Source: an uncultured Alphaproteobacteria bacterium
Lineage (GTDB): Bacteria; Pseudomonadota; Alphaproteobacteria; Rs-D84
Reading direction: 5' to 3'
Length of the DNA: 64,000 nucleotides
Assembly: GCA_944389525.1 (NCBI GenBank)
Contig: CALXMR010000001.1
Span: 33,698 to 97,697 of the forward strand
A program made the position numbers and the translations under genes. Each line of letters opens with the position of its first letter. Position 1 is the first letter of the stretch. Positions 4,587 through 58,083 of this stretch are shown one piece after another. The notes under the pieces are model-generated. The model ran no database searches. It was not told the DNA's origin and saw only the letters and a list, made by a program, of their open reading frames with translations.

Positions 4587-4632
4587 TTTATAAATCCTTG
4601 TTTTATCAACTTTTGAATTTTATACTAAATAT

Positions 4633-5274
4633 ATGGAAAAACAAGAAATAAGAACATTTGGCCGCAGACACGGCAAAAAATTATCCGCCCGTCAAACAAT
4701 GCTGATTGACCGGGTTTTACCGACAATTTCACCAACAAATTTGCCGGCAAATACCGGTAAAATACTGGAAATTGGTTTTGGTGCGGGCGAACATTTGCGT
4801 GAAATTGCCCGGCAAAACCCGGATAAAATCATAATTGGCGCAGAACCATTTATGAATGGCGTTGCATCATTATTATCGGCAATTACGAACGAATCGAACG
4901 TTGTTCGCGATGAATATAAAAACATTCGCGTATATCCAGACGATGTGCGCGATTTTTTGCGACAAACCGATTCGCAATTTGAACAAATTTGGATTCTGCA
5001 CCCCGACCCCTGGCCCAAGGCACGACACGAAAAACGCCGCCTGTTACATGCCGATTTTTTAAAAAATTTATTAAATTATCTGACCCCAGATGGCGAAATC
5101 ATCATCGGCACTGACCACTGGGAATATTTTGATTGGATTGTTGAAAACGCAAAAAATGCCGGATTACATGCATCCACACCAGATATAAATACCATTCATA
5201 CCCGCTATCAAAATAAAAATATGGCCGGCACATCGGCACCAAAATATCTGGTTATCCACGCCCAACAGAACTAA
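4633..5274 (+). CDS. trmB: tRNA (guanine-N7)-methyltransferase
   Basis: 213 aa with a SAM-binding EIGFGAGEHL motif and the C-terminal organisation typical of TrmB. Confidence 0.8.
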   Translation: MEKQEIRTFGRRHGKKLSARQTMLIDRVLPTISPTNLPANTGKILEIGFGAGEHLREIARQNPDKIIIGAEPFMNGVASLLSAITNESNVVRDEYKNIRVYPDDVRDFLRQTDSQFEQIWILHPDPWPKARHEKRRLLHADFLKNLLNYLTPDGEIIIGTDHWEYFDWIVENAKNAGLHASTPDINTIHTRYQNKNMAGTSAPKYLVIHAQQN

Positions 5275-5920
5275 TAAAAAACATTGTTCGCGATAAATAA
5301 TCTGGGGCAATTAAATGAACCAGACGCGCGACCTGGTCTATGCGCGATGTGGTCAATCCTGTTGCAAAATGTATCATGCCATCAAAATTATTTTCAATCA
5401 CCCCCAGCATGGCATACACGCGCCCAACAAAATCCGAATCATCGCCATTATCGTGTGTCAGTGCCAATATTAGTCCATCTGTGCGTATTTTTTTTAACAG
5501 CCCAAACAACACCGGCCAATCAAATGGTCCTATCTCGTCAATGTCTATCCCGATGAATAAATCTTTGTTAAAAAACAAATCATCCCGAATCAGATGCATC
5601 TGGGATACAAAATCGGCCAAATCACTAAACCGCACAAACAATTGCACCCCATCGGCGCCGCGTTTAAAAACGGTATTTATTTTTTGTGTGATATCCGCCA
5701 CATCCGCCCCCAGGTATAAACGGGCATATATTTTCACCCCCCTGTTTTCCAACCACGGCCATACTGTTGCGACATTTTCTGGCAACATTGATACAATTGG
5801 AATTTTTTGTGCGATAACATTTTCCGCCACGCGCGCCAAATCTGTGGCATCGCCACCACCTGTGCACCACGTGCCTACACATACATTTGTATCCAACAGA
5901 ATATTTTCACCATCTATCAT
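5252..5920 (-). CDS. hypothetical protein (alpha/beta, possibly TIM-barrel-like)
   Basis: 222 aa of coherent, non-low-complexity sequence that I cannot assign to a family by eye. The antisense part of ORF 5340..6911 covers it and is a spurious Ser-rich reading. Confidence 0.5.
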   Translation of the reverse strand: MIDGENILLDTNVCVGTWCTGGGDATDLARVAENVIAQKIPIVSMLPENVATVWPWLENRGVKIYARLYLGADVADITQKINTVFKRGADGVQLFVRFSDLADFVSQMHLIRDDLFFNKDLFIGIDIDEIGPFDWPVLFGLLKKIRTDGLILALTHDNGDDSDFVGRVYAMLGVIENNFDGMIHFATGLTTSRIDQVARLVHLIAPDYLSRTMFFISSVGRG

Positions 5921-5963
5921 TGCACTTTTTACTTTATCACAAATATGTTATAATAAAAAGCAA

Positions 5964-6911
5964 ATGAGAATCCGATACGACAATATTTTACTGGGAATAT
6001 TATGGCTGTTGGCGATGACACTGGGGGCGTCATTCTGGTTTAACACGGCATACAGTTTTGATATATTTTCATCATCGCATTGGCAATATTTATCTTATAT
6101 GCAGGCATCGCGTATGCCGGTACGCGTTGGTTTTTATATATCGATGGTGATTATTATTTTTGCCACGATATTTGGCCTGTATCTGATTGCACGACCAAAA
6201 TTACGCAAAATCAGATTACCAATTATGAAAACGGGTCGCACCACGACACAGCCTGGGGTAAATTCTGACACAAAAATTCAACAATCTGCCCCAGACACCA
6301 CACGGTCAGATGCATCCACGCTGGACCTACTGCCCGCAGAAAACCAGCCGCCACAAACATCTGCGCGCCCCCAGTCGCCATATGCATCCACGCGACCACC
6401 GCGTCTGGTACTGCCAACAACGAATTCTGGGGCTATCCATCCTGCCCCACGCCAGGCTGGCCCCAACATTCAACCCCAGACCACACCCACCCCCCAGCCC
6501 CAAGACTGGCCCGAACTGCGCGAAATTTTTGCATCCGCCGGATATGTGGTAAAACCCGCCCCACGAATAAACGGTATCCAGATTGCACTGTTGGCAATCG
6601 GCACAAATGAAACATTGTGGATTGGTGGCGTTGGTATCAAGACAACGGATATGCGAACCGCCATAGACAGACTGCAACAAATATTTTCCGACACACTGGA
6701 CGAAACATACATAGATGTAACTGGCTTTGTCATTGCGGCCCCAGATGCGGCAACATCTGAATTTACAGACATATTAATGTTTAATTCCATGTCTGAATTA
6801 CGCGAATACATGCGCGATAAATCGAATCCAGTACTGACAGATGACGATGGTATGTTTGATGCATACTCTGACTACATAGATGCGGTAATCAGTCACATAG
6901 GCAAGATATGA
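5964..6911 (+). CDS. hypothetical membrane protein with Pro/Gln/Thr-rich linker and ~130 aa C-terminal domain
   Basis: This is the first ATG (MRIRYDNILLGILWLLAMTLG) after the antisense overlap. Two N-terminal TM helices are followed by a low-complexity P/Q/T-rich spacer (PQTSARPQSPYASTRPPRLVLP..TPTPQPQ). The C-terminal domain then shows an alternating beta/alpha pattern (IQIALLAIGTNETLWIGGVGI..., DVTGFVIAAPD). Confidence 0.5.
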   Translation: MRIRYDNILLGILWLLAMTLGASFWFNTAYSFDIFSSSHWQYLSYMQASRMPVRVGFYISMVIIIFATIFGLYLIARPKLRKIRLPIMKTGRTTTQPGVNSDTKIQQSAPDTTRSDASTLDLLPAENQPPQTSARPQSPYASTRPPRLVLPTTNSGAIHPAPRQAGPNIQPQTTPTPQPQDWPELREIFASAGYVVKPAPRINGIQIALLAIGTNETLWIGGVGIKTTDMRTAIDRLQQIFSDTLDETYIDVTGFVIAAPDAATSEFTDILMFNSMSELREYMRDKSNPVLTDDDGMFDAYSDYIDAVISHIGKI

Positions 6912-7417
6912 AACAACTAACGCGCGATAACGCGGAAAAAAGATTATCAGACATGAATATGGGCGATATGCCTGTGATAGAGTATCGCCCCAACCCGGCG
7001 CGCATTGATTCAGATTGGTTTAAAAAATACAAAAAATTACGGCGCGAATTTATCATGTCGCTGACAGATTCAGTAGAGTTATTGGCGATGATGAACCTGA
7101 CCCAGGATGAATTTATGGCACTTATAATGGGACGCGCATTGCCAGATAATTTTTCACTACGTATGCGAATTCCACTGATATGGGGCGGCGATTTAAGTAT
7201 CGATAACATGTTCATGTGTCGCACATTTCCCCATTCACAAAAACTGGACAAATTTATACTCGACCAATATGGTAACGATATCATCTGGTTGCCGAATCCG
7301 GCCAAGAAAATATATATACCATTACACAACATATCTGGTGGTGACGGCGGAAACGCCACATCAGACAGACTCAGCCAGATTGCCGCGCAAATTGTCGCCA
7401 ATCGCGGCATGGAATAA
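6908..7417 (+). CDS. hypothetical protein (169 aa)
   Basis: Its start overlaps the upstream stop (ATGA), so it is translationally coupled. No family recognised. Confidence 0.45.
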   Translation: MKQLTRDNAEKRLSDMNMGDMPVIEYRPNPARIDSDWFKKYKKLRREFIMSLTDSVELLAMMNLTQDEFMALIMGRALPDNFSLRMRIPLIWGGDLSIDNMFMCRTFPHSQKLDKFILDQYGNDIIWLPNPAKKIYIPLHNISGGDGGNATSDRLSQIAAQIVANRGME

Positions 7418-7419
7418 AC

Positions 7420-7869
7420 ATGGGGGCATACAAAATGACATGCGCAGAATTTTTATCACAAATGAAAACGCACGGCGCATATATCGCGCCCCCGATGCCC
7501 CAGAATAATACTCTGATTGCGACAACCAACTTGCAACAACTGCGTGTGGCAATGTTGCCGAAATTTATGATTGAACTGTATTCGCAATGTGGCGGATTAA
7601 TACTGGATACCGGGTATATATTCGGTCCGTCTGAAATTAATCGTGGCAAGAATTACCCTGTGCCAGATATTGTCCAGATTAATCGCGATACCGCGGGCAT
7701 ACTGGCACTGTGCGGTAAAACAATTTTTGGCCGCAATGATTTATTTTTGTTTGCGTTTGATTCATTTGGTGTGTGTCAAATGCTGGATAACATAACACTG
7801 GCGGCGATGCGCACATACGATGATCCATGGCGCGCAATGACCGACTGTTTAATCGCGGGAAAATTATAA
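7420..7869 (+). CDS. SUKH (SMI1/KNR4)-like protein
   Basis: 149 aa with LPKFMIELYSQCGGL, IFGPSEI and LFAFDSFG segments. These resemble the LPxxYxxFLxxxNGG, IFg and aFa.dg.G blocks of SUKH-1 immunity-type proteins. It starts 2 nt after the upstream stop. Confidence 0.45.
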   Translation: MGAYKMTCAEFLSQMKTHGAYIAPPMPQNNTLIATTNLQQLRVAMLPKFMIELYSQCGGLILDTGYIFGPSEINRGKNYPVPDIVQINRDTAGILALCGKTIFGRNDLFLFAFDSFGVCQMLDNITLAAMRTYDDPWRAMTDCLIAGKL

Positions 7870-7874
7870 TAACA

Positions 7875-8081
7875 ATGAAAAAACTGTCTGTATCTTTATC
7901 AGGTCACCAAACCAGCATTTCACTGGAACCAGAATTCATTGATGCATTACACAAAATCGCAATGCGCGAAAAAAAATCTGTGGCATCAATTATTGAACAG
8001 ATTGACGCGGCGCGCCATGCTGATGAAAACTTGTCATCTGCGATACGCGTTTGGATTTTCAAAAAATGCTGTATATGCTGA
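7875..8081 (+). CDS. ribbon-helix-helix domain protein
   Basis: MKKLSVSLSGHQTSISLEPEFIDALHKIAMREKKSVASIIEQIDAARHADENLSSAIRVWIF matches the conserved small alphaproteobacterial RHH family (SLSGHRTSISLE...NLSSAIRV). Confidence 0.6.
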   Translation: MKKLSVSLSGHQTSISLEPEFIDALHKIAMREKKSVASIIEQIDAARHADENLSSAIRVWIFKKCCIC

Positions 8082-8104
8082 AAATAATGCATATACAGCG
8101 ATTT

Positions 8105-10114
8105 TTAATCTCTCTTTTTTACTAAATCAATACCTATTACCATCACGCACGAAAACAGCAATATTATTATCATCCAACCATCACGTCCCAACGCACGATA
8201 CGGCGTTATATGTGCACCCGCCACAGTATCATCGGCATAGCCTGATGCACCGATTGGAATTGCTGATTTAATCGTACCATCCGCCCCCACAAATGCACTG
8301 ATACCCGAATAATTTGCACGAACAATCGGCAGCCCCGATTCGATTGCATACCGGCGAACCATATCCAGGTGTTGATATGTTCCCGGTGTTCGCCCAAACC
8401 ATGTGTCATTTGTAATATTAACAATTGCATCTGGCATTTGATTCATTGGCACCAACGAATCGGAAAACACAATTTCATAACATATTGCCGGCGCGAACGA
8501 AAAATTATGCCCACCAACATCAATATTTATCACAGTTGGTCCGTTACCTGGGGTTAACTGGCCCGGTGTTGGAATTAAATCACCAAATGGTCTGTATTCG
8601 CCGAACGGCACCAGGTGTGATTTACTGTATACATGTTGTATTACGCCATTTTTGTTGGCAACAATCATGGAATTAAATAACCCATCCCCAGAATACGATG
8701 TAGCACCCAATATTATAGTTTTATCCAACGCATCTGCCATTGGGATGTTATCACCATCAACAATAACAAACGGATACGATGTTTCTGGGAAAACGATTAA
8801 ATCAGGATTTCCATTTTTTTCCGCCAATGACATCAGCGAATTTATATTCGCAACCGCATTTCGCATGGCGTCTTCGCGGGAATGAGACGCTTTTTGCGTC
8901 GCGCTGCGCGCTGGCTGTATCACCCGGATAACAGGTGACGAATTATTTTCATGCGCCGCCTGTATTATATTTTCGCGCCCCGCGCATATTCCACAGATTA
9001 CCAATACCACAAACAGCCCCAACACACCCCAAGACAATTTACTGCGGCGATTTGATAAGACTTCTGCCACGGCGGCAATCAGTCCGATTATAACAAAGGT
9101 TAACCCCAACGCCCCCCACAGCGACATAGAATTCGCTATTACAGGATATGGCAACATAATATTTGCAATCGGGTTCCACGGAAATCCGGTCAACAACCAT
9201 TCACGCAACCACAGAACAAATGTCCATGTGGCGGCGAACAAAAATGGTCTGCATGCCGGAAATGTGCGTATACACGAAATAACAACAAACGGCACAGAAA
9301 ATATAACCGCCCCCACGATACCAATTCCCACCAATGCAGGCACGGTCCACACAGCGAATTGTTCGGCCAATTCTGGGACAACATATATAGAATTCAAAAC
9401 CCACCAAAACATTGCCATGGCATAGGCCGCGCCAAACGGTGCGGTTCGCCAAAACACGCCCAAAAAACCACCAGGCACACTGCGTGTGGCCATTTTATAC
9501 GCCGCCGCAATTGCCAACATTGTCGCCCACCACATATTAAACGGCGCAAACCCCAGTGAGGCAATTGCCCCCAATACAAACATTATTGTCCCAGGTATAA
9601 TGCCACTTGTTGGGATTTTTAACTTGCGCAAACGCGACAAAAATTTTTGTCCTGGGCAACATGATAAATCGCTGCATACGGCGGAATCGTGCACATAGGG
9701 ATTTTTTATACCCAATTGTTTTAATATTTTCACTTCGGTATTTTCCATAATTTTTGCATCGTTATCATCTATGTGGTCATAGCCTTGCAGATGTAACATT
9801 CCATGCACAACCATATGCGCCACATGGTCTGTAACAGGTATATTTTCTTCCCCTGCCTCGCGCAGTACTGTATCCAGCGATATATAAATATCACCCAGTA
9901 AAATATCGTCCCCCAGTTCAAAAGACAAAACATTTGTCGGTCTGTCAATATCACGATATTTTTTATTCAGCGCATGTATTTCTGCATCATTCGTCAGCGT
10001 AATCGAAACTTCGGCACACGGTGCAACATCAATCGCCGCGGCGCACGCCACGCGTTCAAAGTCAATTTTATATTTACGCCACCGCGCATCATTATAGTTA
10101 ACACATACTTTCAT
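8105..10114 (-). CDS. fusion ORF: endoribonuclease YbeY (N-terminal ~150 aa) joined in frame to apolipoprotein N-acyltransferase Lnt (~500 aa)
   Basis: The N-terminus carries the YbeY zinc motif HGMLHLQGYDH. After a short linker come the Lnt transmembrane region and CN-hydrolase domain (LVPFGEYRPFGDL, APAICYEIVF, NITNDTWFG). The six-frame track shows a single uninterrupted frame. Confidence 0.8.
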   Translation of the reverse strand: MKVCVNYNDARWRKYKIDFERVACAAAIDVAPCAEVSITLTNDAEIHALNKKYRDIDRPTNVLSFELGDDILLGDIYISLDTVLREAGEENIPVTDHVAHMVVHGMLHLQGYDHIDDNDAKIMENTEVKILKQLGIKNPYVHDSAVCSDLSCCPGQKFLSRLRKLKIPTSGIIPGTIMFVLGAIASLGFAPFNMWWATMLAIAAAYKMATRSVPGGFLGVFWRTAPFGAAYAMAMFWWVLNSIYVVPELAEQFAVWTVPALVGIGIVGAVIFSVPFVVISCIRTFPACRPFLFAATWTFVLWLREWLLTGFPWNPIANIMLPYPVIANSMSLWGALGLTFVIIGLIAAVAEVLSNRRSKLSWGVLGLFVVLVICGICAGRENIIQAAHENNSSPVIRVIQPARSATQKASHSREDAMRNAVANINSLMSLAEKNGNPDLIVFPETSYPFVIVDGDNIPMADALDKTIILGATSYSGDGLFNSMIVANKNGVIQHVYSKSHLVPFGEYRPFGDLIPTPGQLTPGNGPTVINIDVGGHNFSFAPAICYEIVFSDSLVPMNQMPDAIVNITNDTWFGRTPGTYQHLDMVRRYAIESGLPIVRANYSGISAFVGADGTIKSAIPIGASGYADDTVAGAHITPYRALGRDGWMIIILLFSCVMVIGIDLVKKRD

Positions 10115-10128
10115 TTTTATTACACCTG

Positions 10129-12048
10129 TTATGCTATATAATTTTTATTATGTATAACATCTGCAAAATTCACATCGCCGCGTTTTGATTTTAGATTATC
10201 TGCACTACGATTAAACGCTGTCAGTTCTTTATCTTTTATTTTTTTACGCAACCGATTGACATCATTTTGTACGCGCCGATTACCATTCGCAACAGACAAT
10301 TCATAATTTTTCAGTGCCCGTTTAAAATCCCCCTGTCGTTCATATGCATACCCAGCATTATACTGTGCGGCGGCATATTGACTTTTGTCTGCGATACGAT
10401 ACAGAACCTCACGCGCCTGGCTGATTGCATCATCATAGCGCCCCAACTGGTTATAAGTCGCCGCCAAATCATTACGCAACAATGCGTTATCAGGATAATC
10501 ATGAACCATTTTTTCAAAACGCATCGCGGCCACAGTATATTGTTCTGTTTTATACGATGCGATTGCATTTTTATACGCCTCATCATACCCGATGACATAT
10601 GTTTCTGTTTCAACAGCGGCCTTGTTTTCCGCCAGTTTTGCAAATTCTTTATTTCCCAACGCGCATTCCCCAGTACTGCAAAACGCTAAAATATCTGACG
10701 GTAAATAGTTACTGACTTTGGGCCAATTTTTCAACGATTGGTTTCGTTCATTTTTTGGATTTTCCAGCCATTGTTTAAACACTTCATATGTTTTTTTATT
10801 CACACGGCGATTATTTTCATCACCTGTAAAGAACGCACTTTTCTTTTGTCCCATGACCTTAAAGAATTCGTACATTCCATTAACTGGGCAATCCAGCAAC
10901 ATTTGTGGCATTATATCACCGGTCAGTAATCCTGCCTCTAACCAGCGGCGCCAATATAATCCGCGCCCCCCTGCCAAGAATCCACCCAATTTATCTGCGA
11001 CCGTATTTATATCCGCATGCCCCAACCATGCCTTGCCGAAACTGGTGGCATCTGTTATCGGATACTTGGCAAAAACATTTTTAACCAGACTGTCTGGAAC
11101 CGCATATCCATATTCATCATACAATTTACGCAATTCATCAAAGCGCATTTGATGGTTTTTATCCCGCGGGTTTTCGATTAATTTTGAATATGCATTATAT
11201 ACAACCGAACTCATCCCCAGTGCTTCATTAGTTGTATTTATATCAACTGCACCATTTGCGACATCATAACAATATAGAACAAAGTAAGTTTCACCATCTT
11301 CCAGATGCCAACGCGCCAGTTCATATGCCTCGTCCGTGGTCATGGGCGGTGTATCCATGGTAACCCGGCTGCCATCTTTCAACATCGTAGATCCAAATCC
11401 GATTGTTGGTATCCCACGCGAATCGCGATATGGCACATGCATACCATTTTCATCGACATGTACCCCTTCTTTGACAATCAGGTCTGCGATCAGGAACGGT
11501 GTTATCGGCCGCATTTTATCCAAAAACGCCTTGTATGTACCGCGGGCTTGGTTTTCTGCCTGGTCATCAATTTTCCATTCTTTATATTCTTGGAATAAAT
11601 CTGGCCCATATTGGGTTGCCACCCGTCCACCCCCAATCAAAGACGCCAACATAAAATACCACAAAATATGTGCCGACAAATTCGGATATTTTTTTGCAAA
11701 ACTGGATAATTTTTTTTGCTTGCCGCGTTTATTTTTTCCGACATTTAACTGTGCAAATTTTTCTTCCATTTTGCGCAACGCCGCATTATCCAGCGTCAAC
11801 CATCGCGCCAGCATTAACAGAAATTGCGCCCCACCCGCCGCCAGCCATGCCGCGCCCTTGGCGGTCCGCAATCCCATAATCGCCGCCGCATCTTTTATTT
11901 CAGCGTTTTCGTCAATTTGATTTGCCGCATTTTTTGCAGTACGACGCGCCCGAATATATTCAACTGGATTTTTTTCGGCAATTTTCTGGCGCAATTTTTT
12001 TGCTGCTTCCTCTGGCGTTGCGACAATTTTTCTAAATTTTTCTGCCAT
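10129..12048 (-). CDS. membrane-anchored lysozyme-like (GH24-type) protein with C-terminal TPR repeats
   Basis: 639 aa with one hydrophobic segment (AHILWYFMLASLIGGG). The segment KEGVHVDENGMHVPYRDSRGIPTIGFGST matches the catalytic E...D..G..TIG.G block of phage-type GH24 muramidases. C-terminal TPR-like repeats are present (YNQLGRYDDAISQAREVL; YNAGYAYERQGDFKRALKNYELS). Confidence 0.6.
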   Translation of the reverse strand: MAEKFRKIVATPEEAAKKLRQKIAEKNPVEYIRARRTAKNAANQIDENAEIKDAAAIMGLRTAKGAAWLAAGGAQFLLMLARWLTLDNAALRKMEEKFAQLNVGKNKRGKQKKLSSFAKKYPNLSAHILWYFMLASLIGGGRVATQYGPDLFQEYKEWKIDDQAENQARGTYKAFLDKMRPITPFLIADLIVKEGVHVDENGMHVPYRDSRGIPTIGFGSTMLKDGSRVTMDTPPMTTDEAYELARWHLEDGETYFVLYCYDVANGAVDINTTNEALGMSSVVYNAYSKLIENPRDKNHQMRFDELRKLYDEYGYAVPDSLVKNVFAKYPITDATSFGKAWLGHADINTVADKLGGFLAGGRGLYWRRWLEAGLLTGDIMPQMLLDCPVNGMYEFFKVMGQKKSAFFTGDENNRRVNKKTYEVFKQWLENPKNERNQSLKNWPKVSNYLPSDILAFCSTGECALGNKEFAKLAENKAAVETETYVIGYDEAYKNAIASYKTEQYTVAAMRFEKMVHDYPDNALLRNDLAATYNQLGRYDDAISQAREVLYRIADKSQYAAAQYNAGYAYERQGDFKRALKNYELSVANGNRRVQNDVNRLRKKIKDKELTAFNRSADNLKSKRGDVNFADVIHNKNYIA

Positions 12049-12428
12049 TACTTTTTCCCTTTTATTTTATTGCGCCCCAGTCCTGTTTTTTTTGCAATTT
12101 TAGATCGCCGCGCGGCATAATTTGGCGCAACAAACGGATAATCATCTGGCAATCCCCATTTTTCACGATACTGCTGTGGCGTCATATTAAATTTGCGTTT
12201 AATATACCGACGCAACATAATGTGCCATGTGCCATCTTCCAAACATTGAATCCTGTCAGGCTGAATTGACGCAGCAATCTGCTGGCGACTGATTGACGCC
12301 CCGCGCAAACTTTCCCGCGCGGCGCGAACTGCCTCTGCCATCGACAGCGCTGGATTTGCCGCAATTGCCGCCGCCGCCAGATTAGCAATCGCCAATGTAA
12401 GTTCAGAATCTTTGGTCGAATTAACCAA
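12048..12428 (-). CDS. mucR: MucR/Ros family transcriptional regulator (zinc-finger-degenerate variant)
   Basis: IQCLEDGTWHIMLRRYIKRKFNMTPQQYREKWGLPDDYPFVAPNYAARRSKIAKKTGLG aligns with the Ros/MucR core (CLECG..FKSLKRHL..HH.MTPEEYREKW.LP.DYPMVAPAYA). The second Cys and the His ligands are replaced (D, Y, KF). Confidence 0.7.
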   Translation of the reverse strand: MVNSTKDSELTLAIANLAAAAIAANPALSMAEAVRAARESLRGASISRQQIAASIQPDRIQCLEDGTWHIMLRRYIKRKFNMTPQQYREKWGLPDDYPFVAPNYAARRSKIAKKTGLGRNKIKGKK

Positions 12429-14840: not shown

Positions 14841-15572
14841 TCAAAACAATACATTTACATCGAATCCGACCTGTAATTCATCGCTTTCGAATTCATAGTC
14901 TAAATGCCCGGCATATTGCGTGCGCCCATATTGACGAACGATTTTTCCACCCAACCATTCTTGGTCATAATGCGGGTTGGTTGCCTTGCGCAGTGTAAAT
15001 TGCGCCCCCAAACGCCAATCTTCGGTTATGCGAAAATATGCCTCGGGCGCGAAATCGATATACGCCATACCGCGTTCATCATCAAAAATCCAGTTTGATT
15101 GTATTGTCGCGGCCAATGTCATACCTGCCCATTGACGACCAAAACGATACCCCGCATAGTATGTTGAATCCGCATAATACGGCGTACGCACCCGCGAAGA
15201 ACCGCCAAACTTTAACCCGAACAACACATCAGAAATAATATGTGCGCTGTTACCATTGGCCGTACCAACGCGGTAAATCCCACCCAGGTCCAGCGCGGAA
15301 AATCCATCTTCGGATCCGTCAAAATCTTGTTGAAAATGAACATTCAATCCAACAACTAATCGGTTATTTATCCCATATGATAACCGTTCACCCAAACGCA
15401 GAACATTATCCCAATATGTCAGTGTGGTTTCGGATAAAACTTCGCCTATGGCCTGCATATACAATGGGTCCGATGTATCGCGATCCAAACCAACCCCGTC
15501 TGCGCGCGCATCGCCAATTTGCGGCACAATTGTTGCGACCGCGATTAAAAATCCATATAACAGTTTACGCAT
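14841..15572 (-). CDS. outer-membrane beta-barrel protein (OmpW/porin-like)
   Basis: Signal peptide, alternating amphipathic strands, and a C-terminal Phe (..VGFDVNVLF). Confidence 0.6.
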   Translation of the reverse strand: MRKLLYGFLIAVATIVPQIGDARADGVGLDRDTSDPLYMQAIGEVLSETTLTYWDNVLRLGERLSYGINNRLVVGLNVHFQQDFDGSEDGFSALDLGGIYRVGTANGNSAHIISDVLFGLKFGGSSRVRTPYYADSTYYAGYRFGRQWAGMTLAATIQSNWIFDDERGMAYIDFAPEAYFRITEDWRLGAQFTLRKATNPHYDQEWLGGKIVRQYGRTQYAGHLDYEFESDELQVGFDVNVLF

Positions 15573-15671: not shown

Positions 15672-16871
15672 TCAGAACAAGAATATCGCTTGCAAACCGA
15701 TGGTTGCCTCGGAATAATTATCGATATTCGCGTCACCCATATGCGAAAAGATTCCGGTATTCGCATCTGTTCCCCAATACGACAAATCTTTACCGTCTGC
15801 GGAATCATACACCGCCATCTTGCCGTACAGATTTAACGCAAACCAATCATTCGGCTGCCACCCAAGTGCGGCCTTGATACTCAATTGATTATGCCAGTCA
15901 TAGTATCCGAACACACCTTCGAAATTCAGTGTCCAGTCTTCGTCCAACACACTAAATATCCCCAGTCCAACTTCGCCATAAAACACATTATCAACATCTG
16001 TATCATATGCCAAAAAGAATGTTCCTGGTTCGTCTTCTGCGGTAATGCCATTGATACCATTGCCATACGAATTGCCATCAAAATTCACATACCATGCACG
16101 TCCCAATCCATATATTGTGGAACGTCCCAATTTATATCCGCCCTTTAAATCCAATATGACATTGTTGGATACATCATGCTGGTACTGGTAATAGGCGGAC
16201 AGCGTTGCAATCCAATCTGCTGTATCTGCAAACCGCCACTGTACCCCCAATCCAAACAAATTAAATCCATTATCATCCATTGAATCGTCTGGTGCGGTCG
16301 ACCAATCAAATTCATACTTTGAAATATCATATTTCGCCATTGCCAAGACAGCGAAACTGTCGGTTATACCATAACTGAAATCTTCCTTGATAGAAAACTG
16401 GCCCATATCCCATTTGCCATTTGGATCAGACACAGTGCCGTCCGGCTTTAACAAAATATCGTACGAATTCATCGTATACGACAAATCTGTCACAGAACCA
16501 AACTGGCCCGCCAACGGCTGGAAAAACGGGTGCGCCAAATAATATTTGCGTTTCAGTTCACTGCGATATGTTTCCGCCCGTGTTGTACGAACATTTGCCG
16601 ATGAATTGCCGCCCGCATATTGTTTATACAGCGCGCTGCGATTTGCAGGCTGTGTATAATAAATATTTTTTGCATCCGCCGCATCATATGTTTTGGTTGA
16701 TGTGCGCGTTTCATATTTTTCATAGTTAACCTGGGTCCGTTCACGCACGGCCGGCGCGCCTGTTAAATCGGCACTGGATGCCGCACGGGCACCAGAATTT
16801 GTTGCCGCCATCGCCGGCACACCCCCCAGAACCCCAACCATAATTGCAAACAAAGACAAATAATGTTTCAT
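15672..16871 (-). CDS. outer-membrane beta-barrel protein (porin-like)
   Basis: Signal peptide MKHYLSLFAIMVGVLGGVPAMA, aromatic-rich beta strands, and a C-terminal ..GLQAIFLF. Confidence 0.6.
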   Translation of the reverse strand: MKHYLSLFAIMVGVLGGVPAMAATNSGARAASSADLTGAPAVRERTQVNYEKYETRTSTKTYDAADAKNIYYTQPANRSALYKQYAGGNSSANVRTTRAETYRSELKRKYYLAHPFFQPLAGQFGSVTDLSYTMNSYDILLKPDGTVSDPNGKWDMGQFSIKEDFSYGITDSFAVLAMAKYDISKYEFDWSTAPDDSMDDNGFNLFGLGVQWRFADTADWIATLSAYYQYQHDVSNNVILDLKGGYKLGRSTIYGLGRAWYVNFDGNSYGNGINGITAEDEPGTFFLAYDTDVDNVFYGEVGLGIFSVLDEDWTLNFEGVFGYYDWHNQLSIKAALGWQPNDWFALNLYGKMAVYDSADGKDLSYWGTDANTGIFSHMGDANIDNYSEATIGLQAIFLF

Positions 16872-34247: not shown

Positions 34248-35096
34248 ATGAAAAAACAAGAAAAAAAATTAAAACGAATCGCCGCCATTACAATGGCGCG
34301 TAACGATGAATTCTTTCTGGGCCGCTGGATAAAATACTATGGCGAACAAATTGGCCTGGAAAACCTGTATATATATCTAGACGGCACAGACCAGGTAATA
34401 CCCAAAAACGCCGGCGCGGCGCATATAAAAAAATTGCCACATCATGACATGTCACGCGCCGCCGGCGATAAATATCGAATCGGATTAATGAATGATTTGG
34501 CACGCGAATTACTGAAAAAATATGACATTGTAATCGGATGTGACTGTGACGAATTTTTGATTGTTGATCCCAAAATAAATAAATCATTGGCCGAATATTT
34601 ATCAGAAATAAAAATAAAAAATACGGTATCTGGCCTGGGGCTGGATGTCGGCCAAAACATGAACAGCGAACCCACACTGGATGCGAACCTGCCAATATTG
34701 ACCAATCGTGAATATGCATTGCTGTCAACCCGTTATACCAAACCAGTTGTAAAAACAGTCCCCCTTGATTGGGGCAGCGGATTCCACAGCATATCTGGCC
34801 ACAACTTTCACATTGATAAAAACCTGTATCTGTTACACTTTGGCGCGGTTGATATGAAAATGCTGACGTGCAAGGCGGCCGCCCGTGGTGCAGATTGGTT
34901 GGCCCACCTGCGCCGGCGCGGCAATGGGACAATTAATGCGGTAACCACCCTGCCCGCGCATGACGAAAAATGGTTATCGCGCGCACGCACACTGCAAAAA
35001 TTTGCACGTCCAATATACGCATTGGATAAGCCTGGTATGTTTGGGATAAAGCGCGTTGTAAAAATTCCGGCACGATTAAAAAAATCAAATATATAA
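34248..35096 (+). CDS. putative glycosyltransferase (GT-A fold, GT2/GT92-like)
   Basis: An N-terminal IAAITMARNDEFFLGRWIKYYGEQIG segment and a DxD-like CDCDEF, typical of a family of LPS/glycan GT-A transferases. Confidence 0.45.
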   Translation: MKKQEKKLKRIAAITMARNDEFFLGRWIKYYGEQIGLENLYIYLDGTDQVIPKNAGAAHIKKLPHHDMSRAAGDKYRIGLMNDLARELLKKYDIVIGCDCDEFLIVDPKINKSLAEYLSEIKIKNTVSGLGLDVGQNMNSEPTLDANLPILTNREYALLSTRYTKPVVKTVPLDWGSGFHSISGHNFHIDKNLYLLHFGAVDMKMLTCKAAARGADWLAHLRRRGNGTINAVTTLPAHDEKWLSRARTLQKFARPIYALDKPGMFGIKRVVKIPARLKKSNI

Positions 35097-35101
35097 AATT
35101 T

Positions 35102-36133
35102 TTATTTTCCATATTTTACCAAAAATTCTTGGATACGCCGGTGGTATCGATGCGCACGCCGCGTTGGTGGATTATCCATAACGCCATGCAGATACAGTTT
35201 ATTTATATCCCGCGCCGCGGTTATTAAATCTTTTTCATTATCCAGTTCACGCACCTTGCGCATAGAAATAATGATAAAGGGCCACAAGAACTCGCGCTGA
35301 AAGTGTGCAAATTCCGACCCAGTCGCATTTTTCGAATACAAATCAAATGTATACTTTAATCCCACGACAATTGATTCAATCATACGCAATGCCTTGGAAC
35401 TATTCAGCACAGACGATGGGTTTGGCATATAAAAATACAATGGTAATTTTGTAATCATCGTCCGTGGCCGACGCAACATAATTGCCGACCACCATGGAAA
35501 ATCTTCCATAATAATACCGCGAATAAATGGCACAGGTGCAACCAATGCCCGCCGATACAACGCCAACACCGGAAAGCAATGCCGCCGCACCGGACGGCGC
35601 ATCCACAGTGCCCTGTTGCGTTCTGTGCTGTGCATCAAAATCGAATCGGTTTTCCAATAACGAATGTGCCGAACATTGTAAATTATATTCCGCTTTGGCG
35701 GTAACAATTTTGATATATCATGTCCAGCATGCATCATTTTTTTTACAAATTTATGAAACACCGTATCAAATTGAAACAGCACCATATCTGCATTTTGCTT
35801 TTCCGCGATACCACATGTTATTTCCAGTGTTTGTGGATGGATAAAATCATCACTGTCCAGATACAAGATATACTTTCCACGCGCCGCCGCTGTACCGACG
35901 TTTCGTGCATCCGACAGGCCACCATTTTCCTTTGTCACGATTTTAAAACGACCATCACGCGCCGCATATTCTGACAAAATGGCAGCCGAATTATCCGGAC
36001 TGCCATCGTTTACACAAATCGCCTCCCAATCTTGAAAAGTCTGGTTTTGCACACTGTCCAGACATCTACGCAGATATTTTTCAACATTATATACTGGTAT
36101 CACGATTGAAATCACAGGATGACTATGCGGCAT
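35102..36133 (-). CDS. glycosyltransferase family 2 protein (paralog 1)
   Basis: ISIVIPVYNVEKYLRRCLDSVQNQTFQDWEAICVNDGSPDNS, with DSDD (DxD) and ENGGLSDARN; this is a classic GT2 N-terminal core. Confidence 0.8.
   Translation of the reverse strand: MPHSHPVISIVIPVYNVEKYLRRCLDSVQNQTFQDWEAICVNDGSPDNSAAILSEYAARDGRFKIVTKENGGLSDARNVGTAAARGKYILYLDSDDFIHPQTLEITCGIAEKQNADMVLFQFDTVFHKFVKKMMHAGHDISKLLPPKRNIIYNVRHIRYWKTDSILMHSTERNRALWMRRPVRRHCFPVLALYRRALVAPVPFIRGIIMEDFPWWSAIMLRRPRTMITKLPLYFYMPNPSSVLNSSKALRMIESIVVGLKYTFDLYSKNATGSEFAHFQREFLWPFIIISMRKVRELDNEKDLITAARDINKLYLHGVMDNPPTRRAHRYHRRIQEFLVKYGK
35831..36100. repeat. direct repeat copy A (~270 bp, last ~125 bp identical) shared between tandem GT2 genes
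   Basis: By-eye alignment of 35831..36100 against 36865..37136 shows near identity (ggataaaatcatcactgtccagatac ... atatactggtat). The final ~125 bp are identical. Confidence 0.8.
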
Positions 36134-37157
36134 TTTTACACTTCCCTTTTATAAACTGGTGAATATCTGTGCGCAACCGCCGCATCCATCGGCATGACGG
36201 CGCATCCAGTGCACCAATTTTTTCCAATTCGCAAAAACGCCGGCGCGCATCTGCGATATCAGCCTTGTTATCCAAATAGCGCACCTTGCGAAACGCCCAT
36301 TTTATAAAATACCATTTAAACTGTACTGACCACATGCGCATCTGATATTCTGTGGCATATTTTTTATATCGCGTATATGCATCTGTTATTCCATCACACA
36401 AACTGTGCAGTATGCGCAACTGTTTCGCCGACAGAACAATTCCGCCAAAATTTGGAACATAAAAATACAACGGCAACGGCGCAATTGTGACGCGCGGATT
36501 TTTCAGCATAACGGCCGACCACCATGGAAAATCTTCGAATAATATACCCTTGATAAACGGCGTATCTGCAATCAGACTGCGCCGATACATATTTTTCCAA
36601 ACCTGGCAATGTTTAATCAACCAGCGGCGGCGTGGATTGAACATATTATGTGCGCGTTCTGTTGCATATGCGTATACATCATCCGTGACCAGTGTTTTAA
36701 CTGATGCCGGGTTATATTTTTTATGCATGCGTCCTGGCACAACGCCATCAGTATCCATTTTCAGAATATGGCGCACCATTAATTGTGGCCGATAAATTCT
36801 GTCATATGTAAAAGACACAATATCCGAACCATCACGTACGGCTAAAAAGTGTGCGATTTCCATTGTTTGTGGGTGGATAAAATCATCACTGTCCAGATAC
36901 ATGATAAATTCGCCCTGCGCATGTCGCATACCGGCGTTTCGTGCATCCGACAGGCCGCCATTTTCCTTGGTCACGATTTTAAAACGACCATCACGCGTCG
37001 CATATTCTAACAAAATGGCAGCCGAATTATCCGGACTGCCATCGTTTACACAAATCGCCTCCCAATCTTGAAAAGTCTGGTTTTGCACACTGTCCAGACA
37101 TCTACGCAGATATTTTTCAACATTATATACTGGTATTATTATTGAAATTGCCGGCAT
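36123..37157 (-). CDS. glycosyltransferase family 2 protein (paralog 2, tandem duplicate)
   Basis: It has the same GT2 core as 35102..36133. The N-terminal ~90 aa are almost identical to that gene, and the C-terminal halves have diverged. Confidence 0.8.
   Translation of the reverse strand: MPAISIIIPVYNVEKYLRRCLDSVQNQTFQDWEAICVNDGSPDNSAAILLEYATRDGRFKIVTKENGGLSDARNAGMRHAQGEFIMYLDSDDFIHPQTMEIAHFLAVRDGSDIVSFTYDRIYRPQLMVRHILKMDTDGVVPGRMHKKYNPASVKTLVTDDVYAYATERAHNMFNPRRRWLIKHCQVWKNMYRRSLIADTPFIKGILFEDFPWWSAVMLKNPRVTIAPLPLYFYVPNFGGIVLSAKQLRILHSLCDGITDAYTRYKKYATEYQMRMWSVQFKWYFIKWAFRKVRYLDNKADIADARRRFCELEKIGALDAPSCRWMRRLRTDIHQFIKGKCKNAA
36865..37136. repeat. direct repeat copy B of the GT2 5' segment
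   Basis: See copy A. Confidence 0.8.
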
Positions 37158-37174
37158 ATATATCCCCCTCCACT

Positions 37175-38083
37175 TTAATCTTTGTACATTTTGTTTATCA
37201 TCACATCTGCAAAACTGCCAGGGATTGGTTTATCAGTACCACGATAAGTCAACTTTTGAAAACACGCCCCCGCCGTTACTGCATCAAAAGTCTTTTTATC
37301 AAAAGGTTCATTCTGATACGACCACCACAACGCATGCGTTGGATCTTGGTCGACATGGGGCATTTTTTCAAAATATTTTTTTGCCCGCGGATCACCCATC
37401 ACCATCGTCTTGAACAGCAACTGGTGCATAAAGTAATCAAAACTGTGGTTTTCATGTGTCCAATAATCAAAAATCATGGCACGCCACGCGTCCAACAAAT
37501 ATGCCCCGCGGCGCGCACGAATAAAGCAATTCTGCATAAAACTGTACGGACTGCCGACGTTTTTACCGGCCAGATACACAAAGAAATCTTCTTTGATAAT
37601 CCAATCAGGAATTGGTGCGGTTGCAAAATCAGTTGAATCCATCCATATACCACCATATTCATACAACAATTCAACACGACAAATATCCGCAAAATGTGCA
37701 TTTTTTATTTTTCCGGCCGCCCGCTTTTTCCAAATAATATCCGGCAAAGTTATAAATTTGCGCAACTGTTTTTCATCCAGTACAACCAATTCTTGGCGAC
37801 AATTTTTTCTGATACTGCGAAAACATGCCTGAACCAAATCCGGGGCGTTTTTTTCACCCTGTAACCATATTGACCATATTTTTTCATTTTTATCATCGCG
37901 CACCACAGGCCGTTCCACCACCGCGGCCGCGGCCGGCAAATATCGTTTAAAATAGTGGGGGATTATACGCGATATAACATCACTGCGCACTGCGCGGCGC
38001 GTTGCCCGATCACGCCAAAACCAATTAAACACATGTCCGCGTAATAAAACATCAGACATCGCAATCATTCGCGCCAGATTCAT
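37175..38083 (-). CDS. glycosyltransferase, GT32 / capsular polysaccharide synthesis (Caps_synth) family
   Basis: ELLYEYGGIWMDSTDF resembles the GT32 YGGiYlDlD motif. The protein is ~300 aa and soluble. Confidence 0.5.
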   Translation of the reverse strand: MNLARMIAMSDVLLRGHVFNWFWRDRATRRAVRSDVISRIIPHYFKRYLPAAAAVVERPVVRDDKNEKIWSIWLQGEKNAPDLVQACFRSIRKNCRQELVVLDEKQLRKFITLPDIIWKKRAAGKIKNAHFADICRVELLYEYGGIWMDSTDFATAPIPDWIIKEDFFVYLAGKNVGSPYSFMQNCFIRARRGAYLLDAWRAMIFDYWTHENHSFDYFMHQLLFKTMVMGDPRAKKYFEKMPHVDQDPTHALWWSYQNEPFDKKTFDAVTAGACFQKLTYRGTDKPIPGSFADVMINKMYKD

Positions 38084-41107: not shown

Positions 41108-42211
41108 ATGTTATCTGGGATAAAAAGCATGCTGGTTCGCACATTGGCGGTTTTTTCATGTGTGGCGGCACTGACATCGTGCGATTTGTCCACCCCAACC
41201 CACCACGGTGATAATTCTGTAATACCATCAAATTTAAAACGCGTATCGTATAATGAATTGCCGGGCTGGCGTAATGACGATGTTCGCTATGCATTACAGG
41301 CGTTTCGTAATTCATGCCGGGCAAAGATACAATATACCGGCCGCGTTATCCCAGATCGTGCCCTGTTCGAAGAAAAGTGTCGCATGTTACCATCGGCATC
41401 GGCCGATGTGGCAACAATTCGCGCATGGTTTGAATCGAATTTTCAACCGTACCAGATATTGGACGACAACGGTGGCGATCGCGGACTGTACACCGGATAT
41501 TATTCGCCGGTAATTCCGGGCTGTCGCACCAAAACGGCCCAGTGTAATGAACCACTGATGGGCGTACCAACCGATGGTCGTAATTACAAGGGTGTGCCAA
41601 AGAAGACAATTGTTGAACAGCAAATCGGCCGGCCGTTATATTGGGCCAACATTGTTGATGTACAAAACATTCAAATCCAGGGCAGCGGCATGGTCCAACT
41701 GGATGATGGAACATTGGTAAAATTAAATTTTGCCGCGGTGAACGATATGCCATTTAAATCGATTGGTGAACAATTGCGCGCGCGCGGCATACGCCCACCA
41801 AACGGATATTCGGCGGATGCCGTATGGCAATATTTGAAACAGAACCCCACACTTGCCCGCGAGGTTATATATAACAATCCGCGCTATATTTACTTTTATG
41901 AATCCGTCCCGCCAGATGTAATTGGCAAATTGGGTACCCCACTATCCAAGATTCGTTCAATTGCGATGGATGACGATATTTATACATTGGGCATGCCGGT
42001 ATATATTGATACAAACCTGTCCGATGGTCGCCGTTTCAGCCGCCTGATGATTGCCCAAGACACCGGCAGTGCGATAAAAGGCTGGATACGCGCCGACATA
42101 TTCTTTGGCAAGGGTGACGAGGCATACGAATTCGCCCACGGTCAACACGCCCAGGGTCGCATGTATATCCTGATGCCAAAGGAATACACCTATGTCAAAC
42201 CAACCGAATAA
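41108..42211 (+). CDS. mltA: membrane-bound lytic murein transglycosylase A
   Basis: A lipoprotein signal (..AALTSC), the MltA domain, and a C-terminal 3D domain (QGSGMVQLDDGTLVKLNFAAVN; IAQDTGSAIKG). Confidence 0.8.
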   Translation: MLSGIKSMLVRTLAVFSCVAALTSCDLSTPTHHGDNSVIPSNLKRVSYNELPGWRNDDVRYALQAFRNSCRAKIQYTGRVIPDRALFEEKCRMLPSASADVATIRAWFESNFQPYQILDDNGGDRGLYTGYYSPVIPGCRTKTAQCNEPLMGVPTDGRNYKGVPKKTIVEQQIGRPLYWANIVDVQNIQIQGSGMVQLDDGTLVKLNFAAVNDMPFKSIGEQLRARGIRPPNGYSADAVWQYLKQNPTLAREVIYNNPRYIYFYESVPPDVIGKLGTPLSKIRSIAMDDDIYTLGMPVYIDTNLSDGRRFSRLMIAQDTGSAIKGWIRADIFFGKGDEAYEFAHGQHAQGRMYILMPKEYTYVKPTE

Positions 42212-51830: not shown

Positions 51831-52623
51831 CTGCGCCCCCTTTGTCCAGCATGCGCCGATACGCCTCTTTCTTGGATATTCCGGCACGCCGCGCTAAATC
51901 AGCGGCCGCCGCCTTGGTCGAAGATGCCGCAATATCATTTACGATATTTGTAATTTCGCTGTCTGTCATTTTTTTATCTGGCGCCGGTGCAACCACAATT
52001 ACAATTTCGCCACGCGGGGCGTCTATGTGCATTAAATCTGCGGGATATCCGATAATTGCCTGTTCATGAATTTTTGTAATTTCACGAACAATTGCGATTT
52101 GTCGTTCTGGCATCACACGCGCCAATGCGGCAATCGTATTCATGATACGACTGGGACTTTCGTAATAAATAATCGTATGGCGTATTTTGTTATCATCATG
52201 CAACTTTTTTTCATCGAAAAATCCACAGAATGTAAATCTGTCTGTTGGAAACCCAGATAACACCAACGCCGATATCGCCGCCACTGGACCGGGCACAACA
52301 TACACTGGAATATTTTCCGCACGCGCGGCACGAACCAACCGAAACCCCGGATCGCTGATTCCCGGCATACCGGCATCAGACACCGCCGCAATTGTCGCCC
52401 CGGCGCGTAATTTTTCAATCAATTGTGGCACAACATCGCGTTCATTATGCTCATGACACGACACGCGCGGCGTTTTGATATCAAAGTGCGCAGCCAACCT
52501 GGCAAACACACGCGTATCTTCGGCGGCAATTAAATCAACATTACGCAAAACATCAACCGCCCGTGGTGACATATCGGACAAGTTTCCAATTGGTGTTCCA
52601 ACAATATACAGCCCTGTTTGCAT
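51823..52623 (-). CDS. rsmI: 16S rRNA (cytidine1402-2'-O)-methyltransferase
   Basis: LYIVGTPIGNLSDMSPRAVDVLRNVDLIAAEDTR matches the RsmI tetrapyrrole-methylase-like N-terminus. Confidence 0.85.
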   Translation of the reverse strand: MQTGLYIVGTPIGNLSDMSPRAVDVLRNVDLIAAEDTRVFARLAAHFDIKTPRVSCHEHNERDVVPQLIEKLRAGATIAAVSDAGMPGISDPGFRLVRAARAENIPVYVVPGPVAAISALVLSGFPTDRFTFCGFFDEKKLHDDNKIRHTIIYYESPSRIMNTIAALARVMPERQIAIVREITKIHEQAIIGYPADLMHIDAPRGEIVIVVAPAPDKKMTDSEITNIVNDIAASSTKAAAADLARRAGISKKEAYRRMLDKGGADD

Positions 52624-52671
52624 TCGTGTTCCTTTTATAGTAAAATAATACAAAATAAAATGGATTTTTCA

Positions 52672-57193: not shown

Positions 57194-58069
57194 CTAGCGA
57201 ATACCATGTATGATATCTTCCATTTCCAACAAGAAATCCATATCATACCCGCGGGCTTTTAAACGCTGCAACATCAAATGTGCTGCCTCTGCGACACCCA
57301 GGCTTTTGCATATTTCAACAACAGTTACAATTTCATCACGGTTCATTTTATCGGTTGGCATTAATGCAACCGCGACCCCTAATTCACGCAGTGCGGCGCG
57401 CATATACGCCCCACGATGATCCCGGCAACCGTATTCAAATAATACAGCGTATGTTTTGGCATTATTCAAAAAATCGCCATAATAATACGCCGCTGTATTA
57501 ATATTTTTCATAACACGATTTTCAATCGTTTCGCAAATTTTTTCATCAGAATACAAATATTCAATCGATGTCATTTCACTATTATCGTCCTCATATACTG
57601 CACGCAATCCATCCGCAATCGCCTGTTTGCGTGCGGCCAAATCCTGGAACAATTGGGCATTTTCTGGGCATCCGCGCTGTGCCAATACTGTATATATTTC
57701 CGCAGAATTTTGTTGATCATACCAATTCATCTCATCATCCGAGACTATACTTTTCAACAGTGTATCTTCAATAACCGCACAGGCGGGGCGAATGGCCAAA
57801 TCGGTATCTTCTGATTCCACACTGGCAACATCTGGCACAACCGTATCGTCTGGCACACTTGTCGGTATTTCTGTGGCAACTGCCGCTGCTGGTGTTGTTG
57901 CAACAGGGGCATTTTTGGCACCAATTATCCCACCATCATACAGCACCCATGCCGCCGCACCAACCAAGATTAATACAACCAACACAGTCCATAACCGCAC
58001 CCGCCGTGCATGACGTTTTGTATTGCTGCGTGATGTATTTGATGTTTTTTCTTTCATTTTCCCCCCCAT
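57194..58069 (-). CDS. membrane-anchored hypothetical protein (paralog family member 1; Cys-bracketed helical modules)
   Basis: An N-terminal basic segment plus TM anchor (RLWTVLVVLILVGAAAWVL) and a P/T/V-rich linker. Its modules C..IE..L..Y..QN..Y..LA..GC.ENA and its C-terminus DMDFLLEMEDIIHGI are shared with 58760..59479. Confidence 0.55.
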   Translation of the reverse strand: MGGKMKEKTSNTSRSNTKRHARRVRLWTVLVVLILVGAAAWVLYDGGIIGAKNAPVATTPAAAVATEIPTSVPDDTVVPDVASVESEDTDLAIRPACAVIEDTLLKSIVSDDEMNWYDQQNSAEIYTVLAQRGCPENAQLFQDLAARKQAIADGLRAVYEDDNSEMTSIEYLYSDEKICETIENRVMKNINTAAYYYGDFLNNAKTYAVLFEYGCRDHRGAYMRAALRELGVAVALMPTDKMNRDEIVTVVEICKSLGVAEAAHLMLQRLKARGYDMDFLLEMEDIIHGIR

Positions 58070-58083
58070 CTGGTTTATTTAAC

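Follow-up and report, generated by a model that had tools for sequence, protein, structure and literature searches.

A predicted membrane-anchored GH24 lysozyme-TPR protein held as a core gene by Candidatus Enterousia and related gut Alphaproteobacteria

Gene X and the parts of its product

The window analysed here is a 64,000-nucleotide (nt) stretch of contig CALXMR010000001.1 (GenBank assembly GCA_944389525.1, positions 33,698 to 97,697 of the forward strand) from an uncultured alphaproteobacterium of the lineage Rs-D84. The gene of interest within it, which we call X, encodes a protein in which a lysozyme domain of glycoside hydrolase family 24 (GH24) lies between a predicted membrane anchor and a tetratricopeptide repeat (TPR) domain. 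An initial annotation, made from the letters alone, had placed an open reading frame (ORF) of 639 amino acids (aa) at 10129..12048, and this matches exactly, the ORF lying on the minus strand with an ATG start. The parts of X were delimited from a full-length AlphaFold 2 (AF2) model (predicted local distance difference test, pLDDT, 83.8) together with alignments, and are as follows.

10129..12048, minus strand: gene X, 639 aa, ATG start, predicted membrane-anchored GH24 lysozyme-TPR protein (ORF list)
11680..12048, minus strand, aa 1-123: N-terminal module (N-module), basic and helical, predicted cytoplasmic (invariant columns and charge counts)
11788-11865, minus strand, aa ~62-87: helix H1 within the N-module, weakly hydrophobic, Gly/Ala-rich
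11611..11679, minus strand, aa 124-146 (LSAHILWYFMLASLIGGGRVATQ): helix H2, the probable membrane anchor (hydropathy), predicted N-in/C-out
10909..11535, minus strand, aa ~172-380: GH24 (T4/P22-type) lysozyme domain
11392..11469, minus strand, aa 194-219: catalytic motif E194-G...Y207-R-D209...T215-I-G-F-G (alignment)
10588..10908, minus strand, aa 381-487: C-terminal extension (CPVNGMYEFF...C457xxxxC462), conserved, packing with the lysozyme domain in the model
10183..10587, minus strand, aa 488-622: TPR domain, three repeats and a long capping helix (Pfam, Foldseek, AF2)
aa 623-639: disordered tail (AF2 model)

Residues M1, V9, P12, D87, N88, R92, E95 and P122 of the N-module are invariant in a 19-sequence alignment, and the module as a whole is missing from short-form relatives of X. 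In the AF2 model H2 opens a long helix or stalk (aa 124-168) that leads to the GH24 domain, which carries a 6-residue insertion after the catalytic Glu relative to the phage enzymes and about 40 additional residues in its C-terminal lobe (aa ~290-355). Full-length Foldseek comparisons with the PDB were dominated by TPR matches and the central region was remodelled alone; aa 165-480 then form a single unit (pLDDT ~90, predicted template modelling score 0.89) that includes most of the extension with its conserved cysteines C387, C457 and C462. The extension has no Pfam match, and fold matches in the PDB and BFVD are confined to the lysozyme part.

The C-terminal TPR repeats that had been proposed are upheld by Pfam scores above threshold for TPR_12 (35.3 bits against 30.1), TPR_19 (29.3 against 25) and TPR_17 (26.0 against 24.4). 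Seven helices lie within aa 488-622 of the model, with template modelling (TM) scores in Foldseek of 0.76-0.84 to CTPR3-type structures and 0.78 to the YbgF TPR; the PDB sequence matches of this region are consensus TPR proteins.

The lysozyme domain, its export and a paralogue pair

X belongs to the GH24/Phage_lysozyme superfamily by homology, fold and catalytic residues. All 17 members of the core profile match Phage_lysozyme (PF00959) individually (best E 3.5e-7), and distant members of the X family score 35-44 bits against it. Every one of the seven PDB matches to a profile of the central region (aa 165-480) is a GH24 lysozyme, and hhalign comparison of the X-family profile with 36 ordinary phage lysozymes gives a probability of 99.7% (E 1.8e-26); X also matches the phrog_7 endolysin. 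The two-lobed T4/P22-lysozyme fold is found over the full GH24 domain of the model, and the best structural matches of the core are endolysin-type GH24 enzymes.

The catalytic block quoted in the initial annotation (KEGVHVDENGMHVPYRDSRGIPTIGFGST) is present at aa 193-221, and both in the PDB profile matches and in hhalign E194, D209 and T215 align to the catalytic Glu, Asp and Thr of lysozymes (E11, D20 and T26 of T4 lysozyme, T4L). These three residues, Y207 and a W366-R-R-W...E371 block are invariant among 19 homologues down to 48% identity. A simple pattern match located the motif in 157 of 165 sequences, with at least one match (P0151) mis-registered, and in this census Glu and Thr are present in 157/157, Tyr in 156/157 and Asp in 150/157. 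The earlier GH24 lysozyme call would have fallen had a careful alignment shown the catalytic residues to be missing or had the fold been unlike that of lysozymes; neither is the case, and the call stands. Judged from sequence, X is likely to be catalytically active.

We note that the position equivalent to T4L D20 varies in some relatives, with the Asp replaced by Ser, Ile or Cys in P0158, P0162, P0130 and P0154, all of which keep the Glu and Thr; P0158 was missed by the census pattern and its Ser was read by eye. The D20C and D20A forms of T4 and P22 lysozymes keep activity (Randich et al., bioRxiv 10.1101/418723).

X has two weakly hydrophobic helices, at aa ~62-87 (H1) and ~124-146 (H2). 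The single transmembrane segment of the initial annotation is correct in that there is one effective anchor, but the hydrophobic segments number two and only the second matches the anchor of the relatives. That X is membrane-anchored agrees with the position of H2, which sits where short-form relatives have a signal-anchor or signal peptide. The N-terminal tail of X contains 14 Lys/Arg (K/R) and 9 Asp/Glu (D/E), and the loop between H1 and H2 contains 11 and 2; across the alignment this loop has 7-13 K/R against 1-6 D/E in 18 of 19 sequences, and the segment that follows H2 is neutral to acidic in all 19. By the positive-inside rule the N-module of X is probably cytoplasmic, and probably H2 is the membrane anchor and H1 is associated with the membrane without spanning it. 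A hairpin of two transmembrane helices with a cytoplasmic lysozyme was also considered, and was rejected in view of the K/R-rich loop and the exported short-form relatives.

The N-termini of the relatives are of several kinds. Lipoprotein signals are found in the divergent P0146 (...VAGC) and P0123 (...MTSC), P0162 begins with a cleavable-looking signal peptide, and P0164, P0141, P0137, P0151 and others have a single signal-anchor. Because the relatives begin in one or another of these ways, we infer that the catalytic body is exported throughout the X family, and that X itself combines an exported GH24 fold with a TPR domain is a conclusion in which we have high confidence.

A different organization is present at locus L080, in which the slot after mucR, the gene upstream of X, holds two tandem X paralogues at 6001-7332 and 7356-9212. 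In P0160, a protein of 443 aa that aligns to aa 167-461 of X (hhalign E 2.5e-42), the catalytic motif is intact (EGFELKPYQDSRGFWTIGIG) and both the long N-module and the TPR domain are missing. The other paralogue, of 618 aa, aligns to aa 1-620 of X (hhalign probability 99.9%) with a strongly conserved N-module (BLASTP E 9e-21) and a TPR domain; its central domain aligns poorly, with Met and His at the positions of E194 and D209 in a region of low alignment confidence. Gene fission is ruled out, the 618-aa protein being a full-length paralogue by BLASTP and hhalign, and the pair is a tandem duplication with an apparent division of labour. Because it splits an intact core from a protein in which the N-module and TPR accompany a degenerate core, the pair suggests that these two modules have a selectable role apart from catalysis.

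Distribution, neighbouring genes and other features of the window

When 1.84 billion cluster representatives (50% identity) were searched exhaustively with the profile, 46 matched at E < 1e-30, most of which cover nearly the whole of the 316-position core, a few being fragments. Beyond the 46 the search found only phage-type lysozymes of 140-200 aa that match profile positions ~30-130, and the X family is therefore narrow and sharply bounded; the extension at aa 381-487 occurs solely within it. Its members are without names: 285 homologues are nearly all of 600-670 aa, databases call them nothing beyond 'hypothetical protein', and our literature searches found no description of the family. A protein identical to X is encoded on 15 metagenome contigs.

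X is present in 75 loci of GTDB species representatives, from Candidatus (Ca.) Enterousia and unnamed gut Alphaproteobacteria, and these include one closed chromosome of 958,618 bp. Enterousia falls within the GTDB order Rs-D84, which is reported to have genomes of <1 Mb, no flagella, and RodA, MreB and MrdA; many biosynthetic pathways are missing, and metabolites are proposed to come from other cells, on which these bacteria probably depend as partners (PMC12306168).

The genes on either side of X in the window are the following.

12048..12428, minus strand: mucR (ROS/MucR), upstream; Pfam ROS_MUCR E 1.5e-27; TTG start with AAGAGGA before it
8105..10114, minus strand: ybeY::lnt fusion, 669 aa, downstream; Pfam YbeY, LNT_N and CN_hydrolase, TIGR lnt and ybeY

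As had been reported, the ATG of X and the TAA stop of mucR have one base in common (...AAG TAATG GCA...; GGGAAAAAGTAATGGCA). The gap to ybeY::lnt is short, as described, but measures 14 nt from the X stop to the ATG and not 15. This tight spacing is in keeping with the operon-like packing that had been proposed, and no terminator-like site lies between mucR, X and ybeY::lnt on the minus strand, in a consensus scan for promoters and terminators that was overall no better than chance (19 found, 15 +/- 4.3 expected in shuffled sequence). An extended -10 (TGATATAAT, 12469-12461) can be read by eye within the AT-rich spacer upstream of mucR and carries little weight.

The order mgsA(-), mucR-X-ybeY-lnt, RHH4(-)-orf149(-)-orf169(-) is kept in 69-74 of the 75 loci; the median gap is 10 nt between mucR and X and 13 nt between X and ybeY. 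Within the block X has the lowest median identity, 53%, a value similar to the 57% of Lnt. The products of ybeY (rRNA maturation RNase) and lnt (apolipoprotein N-acyltransferase) are functionally unrelated enzymes joined in a conserved fusion, a single ORF in 73/73 assessable loci and also in the distant L080, L082 and L088. The trio beyond it, at 6908-8081 (+) in the window, lies downstream of ybeY::lnt on the opposite strand and is found in ~70 of the 75 loci; it comprises orf169 and orf149, neither with a significant Pfam match, and an RHH_4 ribbon-helix-helix protein (7827-8081, E 2.9e-21) that overlaps the end of orf149 by 43 nt.

The slot between mucR and ybeY is thus kept in most of the 75 loci, but the linkage is lost in deeper relatives: L088 retains X-ybeY::lnt and is missing mucR, L086 has X with neither gene, and the neighbourhood in L084 is unrelated. 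Because the whole block is conserved and dissolves in deeper relatives, the order mucR-X-ybeY::lnt is inherited synteny and not evidence of shared function, and its conservation is as expected where small, stable genomes are passed on vertically. The functional meaning that the initial annotation attached to linkage with a global regulator and lipoprotein maturation is not sustained, the whole block being syntenic and the linkage broken in L088, L086, L084 and L079, and functional coupling of X to the two genes was rejected on the same grounds. We treat mucR and ybeY::lnt as genomic context. In L079 (GCA_031549365.1) the X relative P0164 (6001-7626, +) is divergent beside an AmiC-type amidase with AMIN and Amidase_3 domains (4592-5878, -), and MotA/ExbB- and OmpA-family genes are close to it.

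Within 10 kb and in most of the window the neighbours of X are housekeeping genes, encoding SecDF, an S41 peptidase, FtsK, FabD, MutL, GreA and LptF/G, a XerC/D-type recombinase, RecA, SecB and tRNA synthetases. No phage or secretion-system genes are seen among these neighbours. Genes for secretion, pili or flagella are absent from the 10 kb around the gene in L076-L088 and, in the 64-kb window, from the parts that were annotated. Given this housekeeping context, the reported absence of flagella (PMC12306168) and the predicted tethering of X in its own membrane, we find no support for the earlier suggestions that X serves a secretion system or acts as an effector.

Other wall-remodelling components are present, since the window also encodes a lytic transglycosylase with MltA and 3D domains (41108-42211, +) and an LppC/LpoA-like periplasmic protein (52618-54279, +). 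The MltA homologue rules out X as the sole glycan-cleaving enzyme of a minimal genome.

Among the remaining features of the window, two adjacent ORFs of 243 aa (14841-15572, -) and 399 aa (15672-16871, -) have signal-peptide-like N-termini and the ...F C-termini typical of outer-membrane beta-barrels; both are conserved in related loci and have no Pfam family on record. Four glycosyltransferase or capsule-synthesis genes (GT2 x3, Caps_synth) lie beside recA at 34248-38083 and suggest surface polysaccharide synthesis in a reduced genome. All 2-kb bins of the window (1-64000) have a negative GC skew (cumulative -5.05) and the minus strand carries most of the long ORFs, consistent with a window that is wholly inside one replichore and read against the leading strand. 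No Pfam match at E <= 1e-5 was obtained for several long ORFs (523, 291, 227 and 445 aa; including 5340-6911 (+), 57194-58767 (-) and 62252-63589 (-)), and the ORF at 5340-6911 overlaps opposite-strand genes called in related contigs and may not be a real gene.

A domesticated lysozyme and its alternatives

The best overall explanation for X, which we consider moderately probable, is a domesticated, still-catalytic housekeeping muramidase docked by its TPR domain. X would descend, by vertical inheritance on the chromosome, from a GH24 lysozyme of phage type, and in Ca. Enterousia and other gut Alphaproteobacteria with reduced genomes related to it would act on peptidoglycan as a periplasmic muramidase tethered to the membrane. 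Residues 1-123 would be cytoplasmic, helix 124-146 would cross the inner membrane and the remainder would be periplasmic. By homology with the T4 and P22 lysozymes, in which Glu, Asp and Thr have these parts (also Randich et al.), Glu194 would be the general acid, Asp209 and Thr215 would position the attacking water, and X would hydrolyse the beta-1,4 bond between N-acetylmuramic acid (MurNAc) and N-acetylglucosamine (GlcNAc), MurNAc-beta-1,4-GlcNAc. The TPR domain and the extension (aa 381-487) may dock or restrain the enzyme on wall-synthesis or division partners, the conserved N-module could couple X to a cytoplasmic partner, and the role would be wall remodelling in growth or division, beside conventional enzymes such as the MltA homologue. 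For a housekeeping remodelling role with TPR docking we put the chances at about even. That X is a core gene is supported by its one syntenic slot in 75 species-level genomes, its housekeeping neighbours and a conservation near that of Lnt, and the amidase neighbour in L079 and the paralogue pair in L080 are hints of a connection with the wall.

Several points weigh against this explanation. X alone scores 21.4-21.8 bits against PF00959, below the cutoff of 22.3 (E 3e-4), and both of its hydrophobic helices are weakly hydrophobic, with a mean Kyte-Doolittle value of 0.4-1.5. Seven of the 157 census sequences have C, A, I or Y at the Asp position, and intact residues are no proof of bulk lytic activity, because SpmX, the one domesticated GH24 enzyme to have been characterised, is attenuated. 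A lysozyme that is active without regulation in the periplasm of its own cell is dangerous, and with an MltA homologue present X is not needed as the sole glycan-cleaving enzyme. Models of YbgF, BamD and other specific TPR families score far below their cutoffs. Our proposals on activity, localisation and partner go further than the fold and the residues and are inferences.

The comparison with SpmX also provides the main rival. In SpmX of the Caulobacterales (PDB 6H9D) an N-terminal muramidase is followed by a variable linker and two C-terminal transmembrane segments (bioRxiv 10.1101/418723), and the cleft of this domesticated, attenuated GH24 is remodelled, with D20L/R/G and with T26 and Y18 relaxed (Randich et al., bioRxiv 10.1101/418723). 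Co-opted in a similar way, the lysozyme domain of X would mainly bind or very locally nick peptidoglycan, and X, with its cytoplasmic N-module and TPR domain, would be a positional scaffold or a polarity or division landmark and not a bulk hydrolase; we regard this as unlikely though not far-fetched. SpmX has D20L, and its T26 and Y18 are no longer under selection, whereas the equivalent E/D/T/Y residues are conserved in 150-157 of the 157 X-family sequences, and X itself keeps D209, T215 and Y207 (the T4L Y18 equivalent). Domain order and anchoring are reversed, the hydrophobic helices of X preceding GH24 and its C-terminus being TPR; the host clades differ and the two proteins share no common sequence family. 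At L080, moreover, a degenerate paralogue coexists with one whose core is intact, which argues that catalysis has been kept at the locus.

The remaining alternatives have less to commend them. X might be a weapon or feeding tool, directed at the wall of a partner or competitor for access or for muropeptide harvest, and intact catalytic residues would suit such a use, as would lipoprotein members (P0146 and P0123) that could sit in the outer membrane and genomes of <1 Mb with missing pathways and metabolites proposed to come from other cells (PMC12306168). We find this quite improbable for a protein that, like most of its relatives, is predicted to sit on an N-terminal inner-membrane anchor, in X behind a charged module of 120 aa, and that has no secretion system, immunity-like small gene or toxin-type context nearby; its one fixed housekeeping slot in 75 genomes is unlike typically mobile effector loci. 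A part in making space for a secretion system, a pilus or another machine that spans the envelope, analogous to VirB1, EtgA, FlgJ or Brucella SagA, is very improbable: those enzymes are encoded within or beside machine genes, whereas X has no secretion, pilus or flagellar genes within 10 kb of the examined loci or in the annotated window parts, flagella are reported absent in the lineage (PMC12306168), and the best structural matches are endolysin-type GH24 enzymes and not machine-associated families. Scarcely credible is a remnant prophage endolysin, for example of the signal-arrest-release (SAR) type, without host function. Its attractions are that the nearest outside relatives of X are phage endolysins (phrog_7) and that the anchor helix is Gly/Ala-rich and weakly hydrophobic, as SAR domains are. 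However, the anchor of X follows a 123-aa charged module with 25 K/R, which is incompatible with SAR-type release, and stands 48 residues before the catalytic Glu; there is no holin, spanin or other phage gene near X. SAR endolysins carry their weakly hydrophobic transmembrane domain, which is able to leave the membrane, at the extreme N-terminus and are encoded in a phage lysis cassette, and X is neither one of these nor an SpmX. The gene occupies the same chromosomal slot in 75 species, with its length conserved and its residues invariant, and ~470 aa of non-phage modules have been added. Compared with phage GH24 endolysins of the P22, phage 21, DLP12 RrrD and FAHEc1 LysF1 type (PF00959, PHROG 7), X is a 639-aa, chromosomal, vertically inherited protein outside any lysis cassette, and adds the 6-residue insertion, ~40 C-lobe residues, an extension of ~105 aa, the TPR domain and the 123-aa N-module.

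For the housekeeping muramidase that we favour, functional parallels can be found among bacterial wall enzymes and their adaptors. Slt70, the GH23 enzyme Cj0843c and MltG/YceG are housekeeping glycan-cleaving enzymes that combine a helical-repeat scaffold or membrane anchor with a lysozyme-like or periplasmic domain, and X may, by analogy only, work as they do. X has the hydrolase-type triad of GH24, whereas those are lytic transglycosylases of the GH23 and YceG families, without sequence relationship to it. CpoB/YbgF, NlpI and the N-terminal domain of LpoA are periplasmic TPR adaptors of wall enzymes. X has, like them, a short and in its case predicted periplasmic TPR array, to which the YbgF TPR is a good structural match (2xev, TM score 0.78; a weak NCBIfam match, E 3e-4), but the array is fused to the hydrolase itself, and in the adaptors it is a separate protein.

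An extension of the favoured explanation is that the N-module, through D87-N88, R92 and E95, senses or binds a cytoplasmic partner, for example of the cytoskeletal or division kind, and controls a fully active periplasmic lysozyme via the anchor, the TPR domain selecting the site. We think this distinctly unlikely as a whole. If true, such transmembrane coupling would be a second taming route, mechanistically unlike the attenuation of the active site in SpmX, and X might even act on the wall of an attached host cell.

X does not represent a new kind of system. The enzyme is a familiar one, and the novelty is in its family, which is unnamed and has a lineage-restricted architecture, proposed as cytoplasmic module, anchor, expanded GH24, extension and TPR, that is fixed as a core gene; the active site appears to be intact. 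The analysis proposes a probable function where annotation has only a conserved 'hypothetical protein', in Ca. Enterousia and related metagenome-assembled genomes, a widespread uncultured gut lineage in which, with genomes of <1 Mb, each retained envelope gene is likely to matter. Its practical value is modest, consisting of improved annotation and a candidate for studies of wall remodelling in reduced genomes. To our knowledge SpmX is the only domesticated phage GH24 lysin characterised as a core bacterial gene, and it is tamed by a blunted active site. The X family appears instead to keep a complete catalytic centre and to add an anchor, a cytoplasmic module, an extra subdomain and TPR, and for this reason X may offer a testable second solution for living with a phage lysin in the periplasm.

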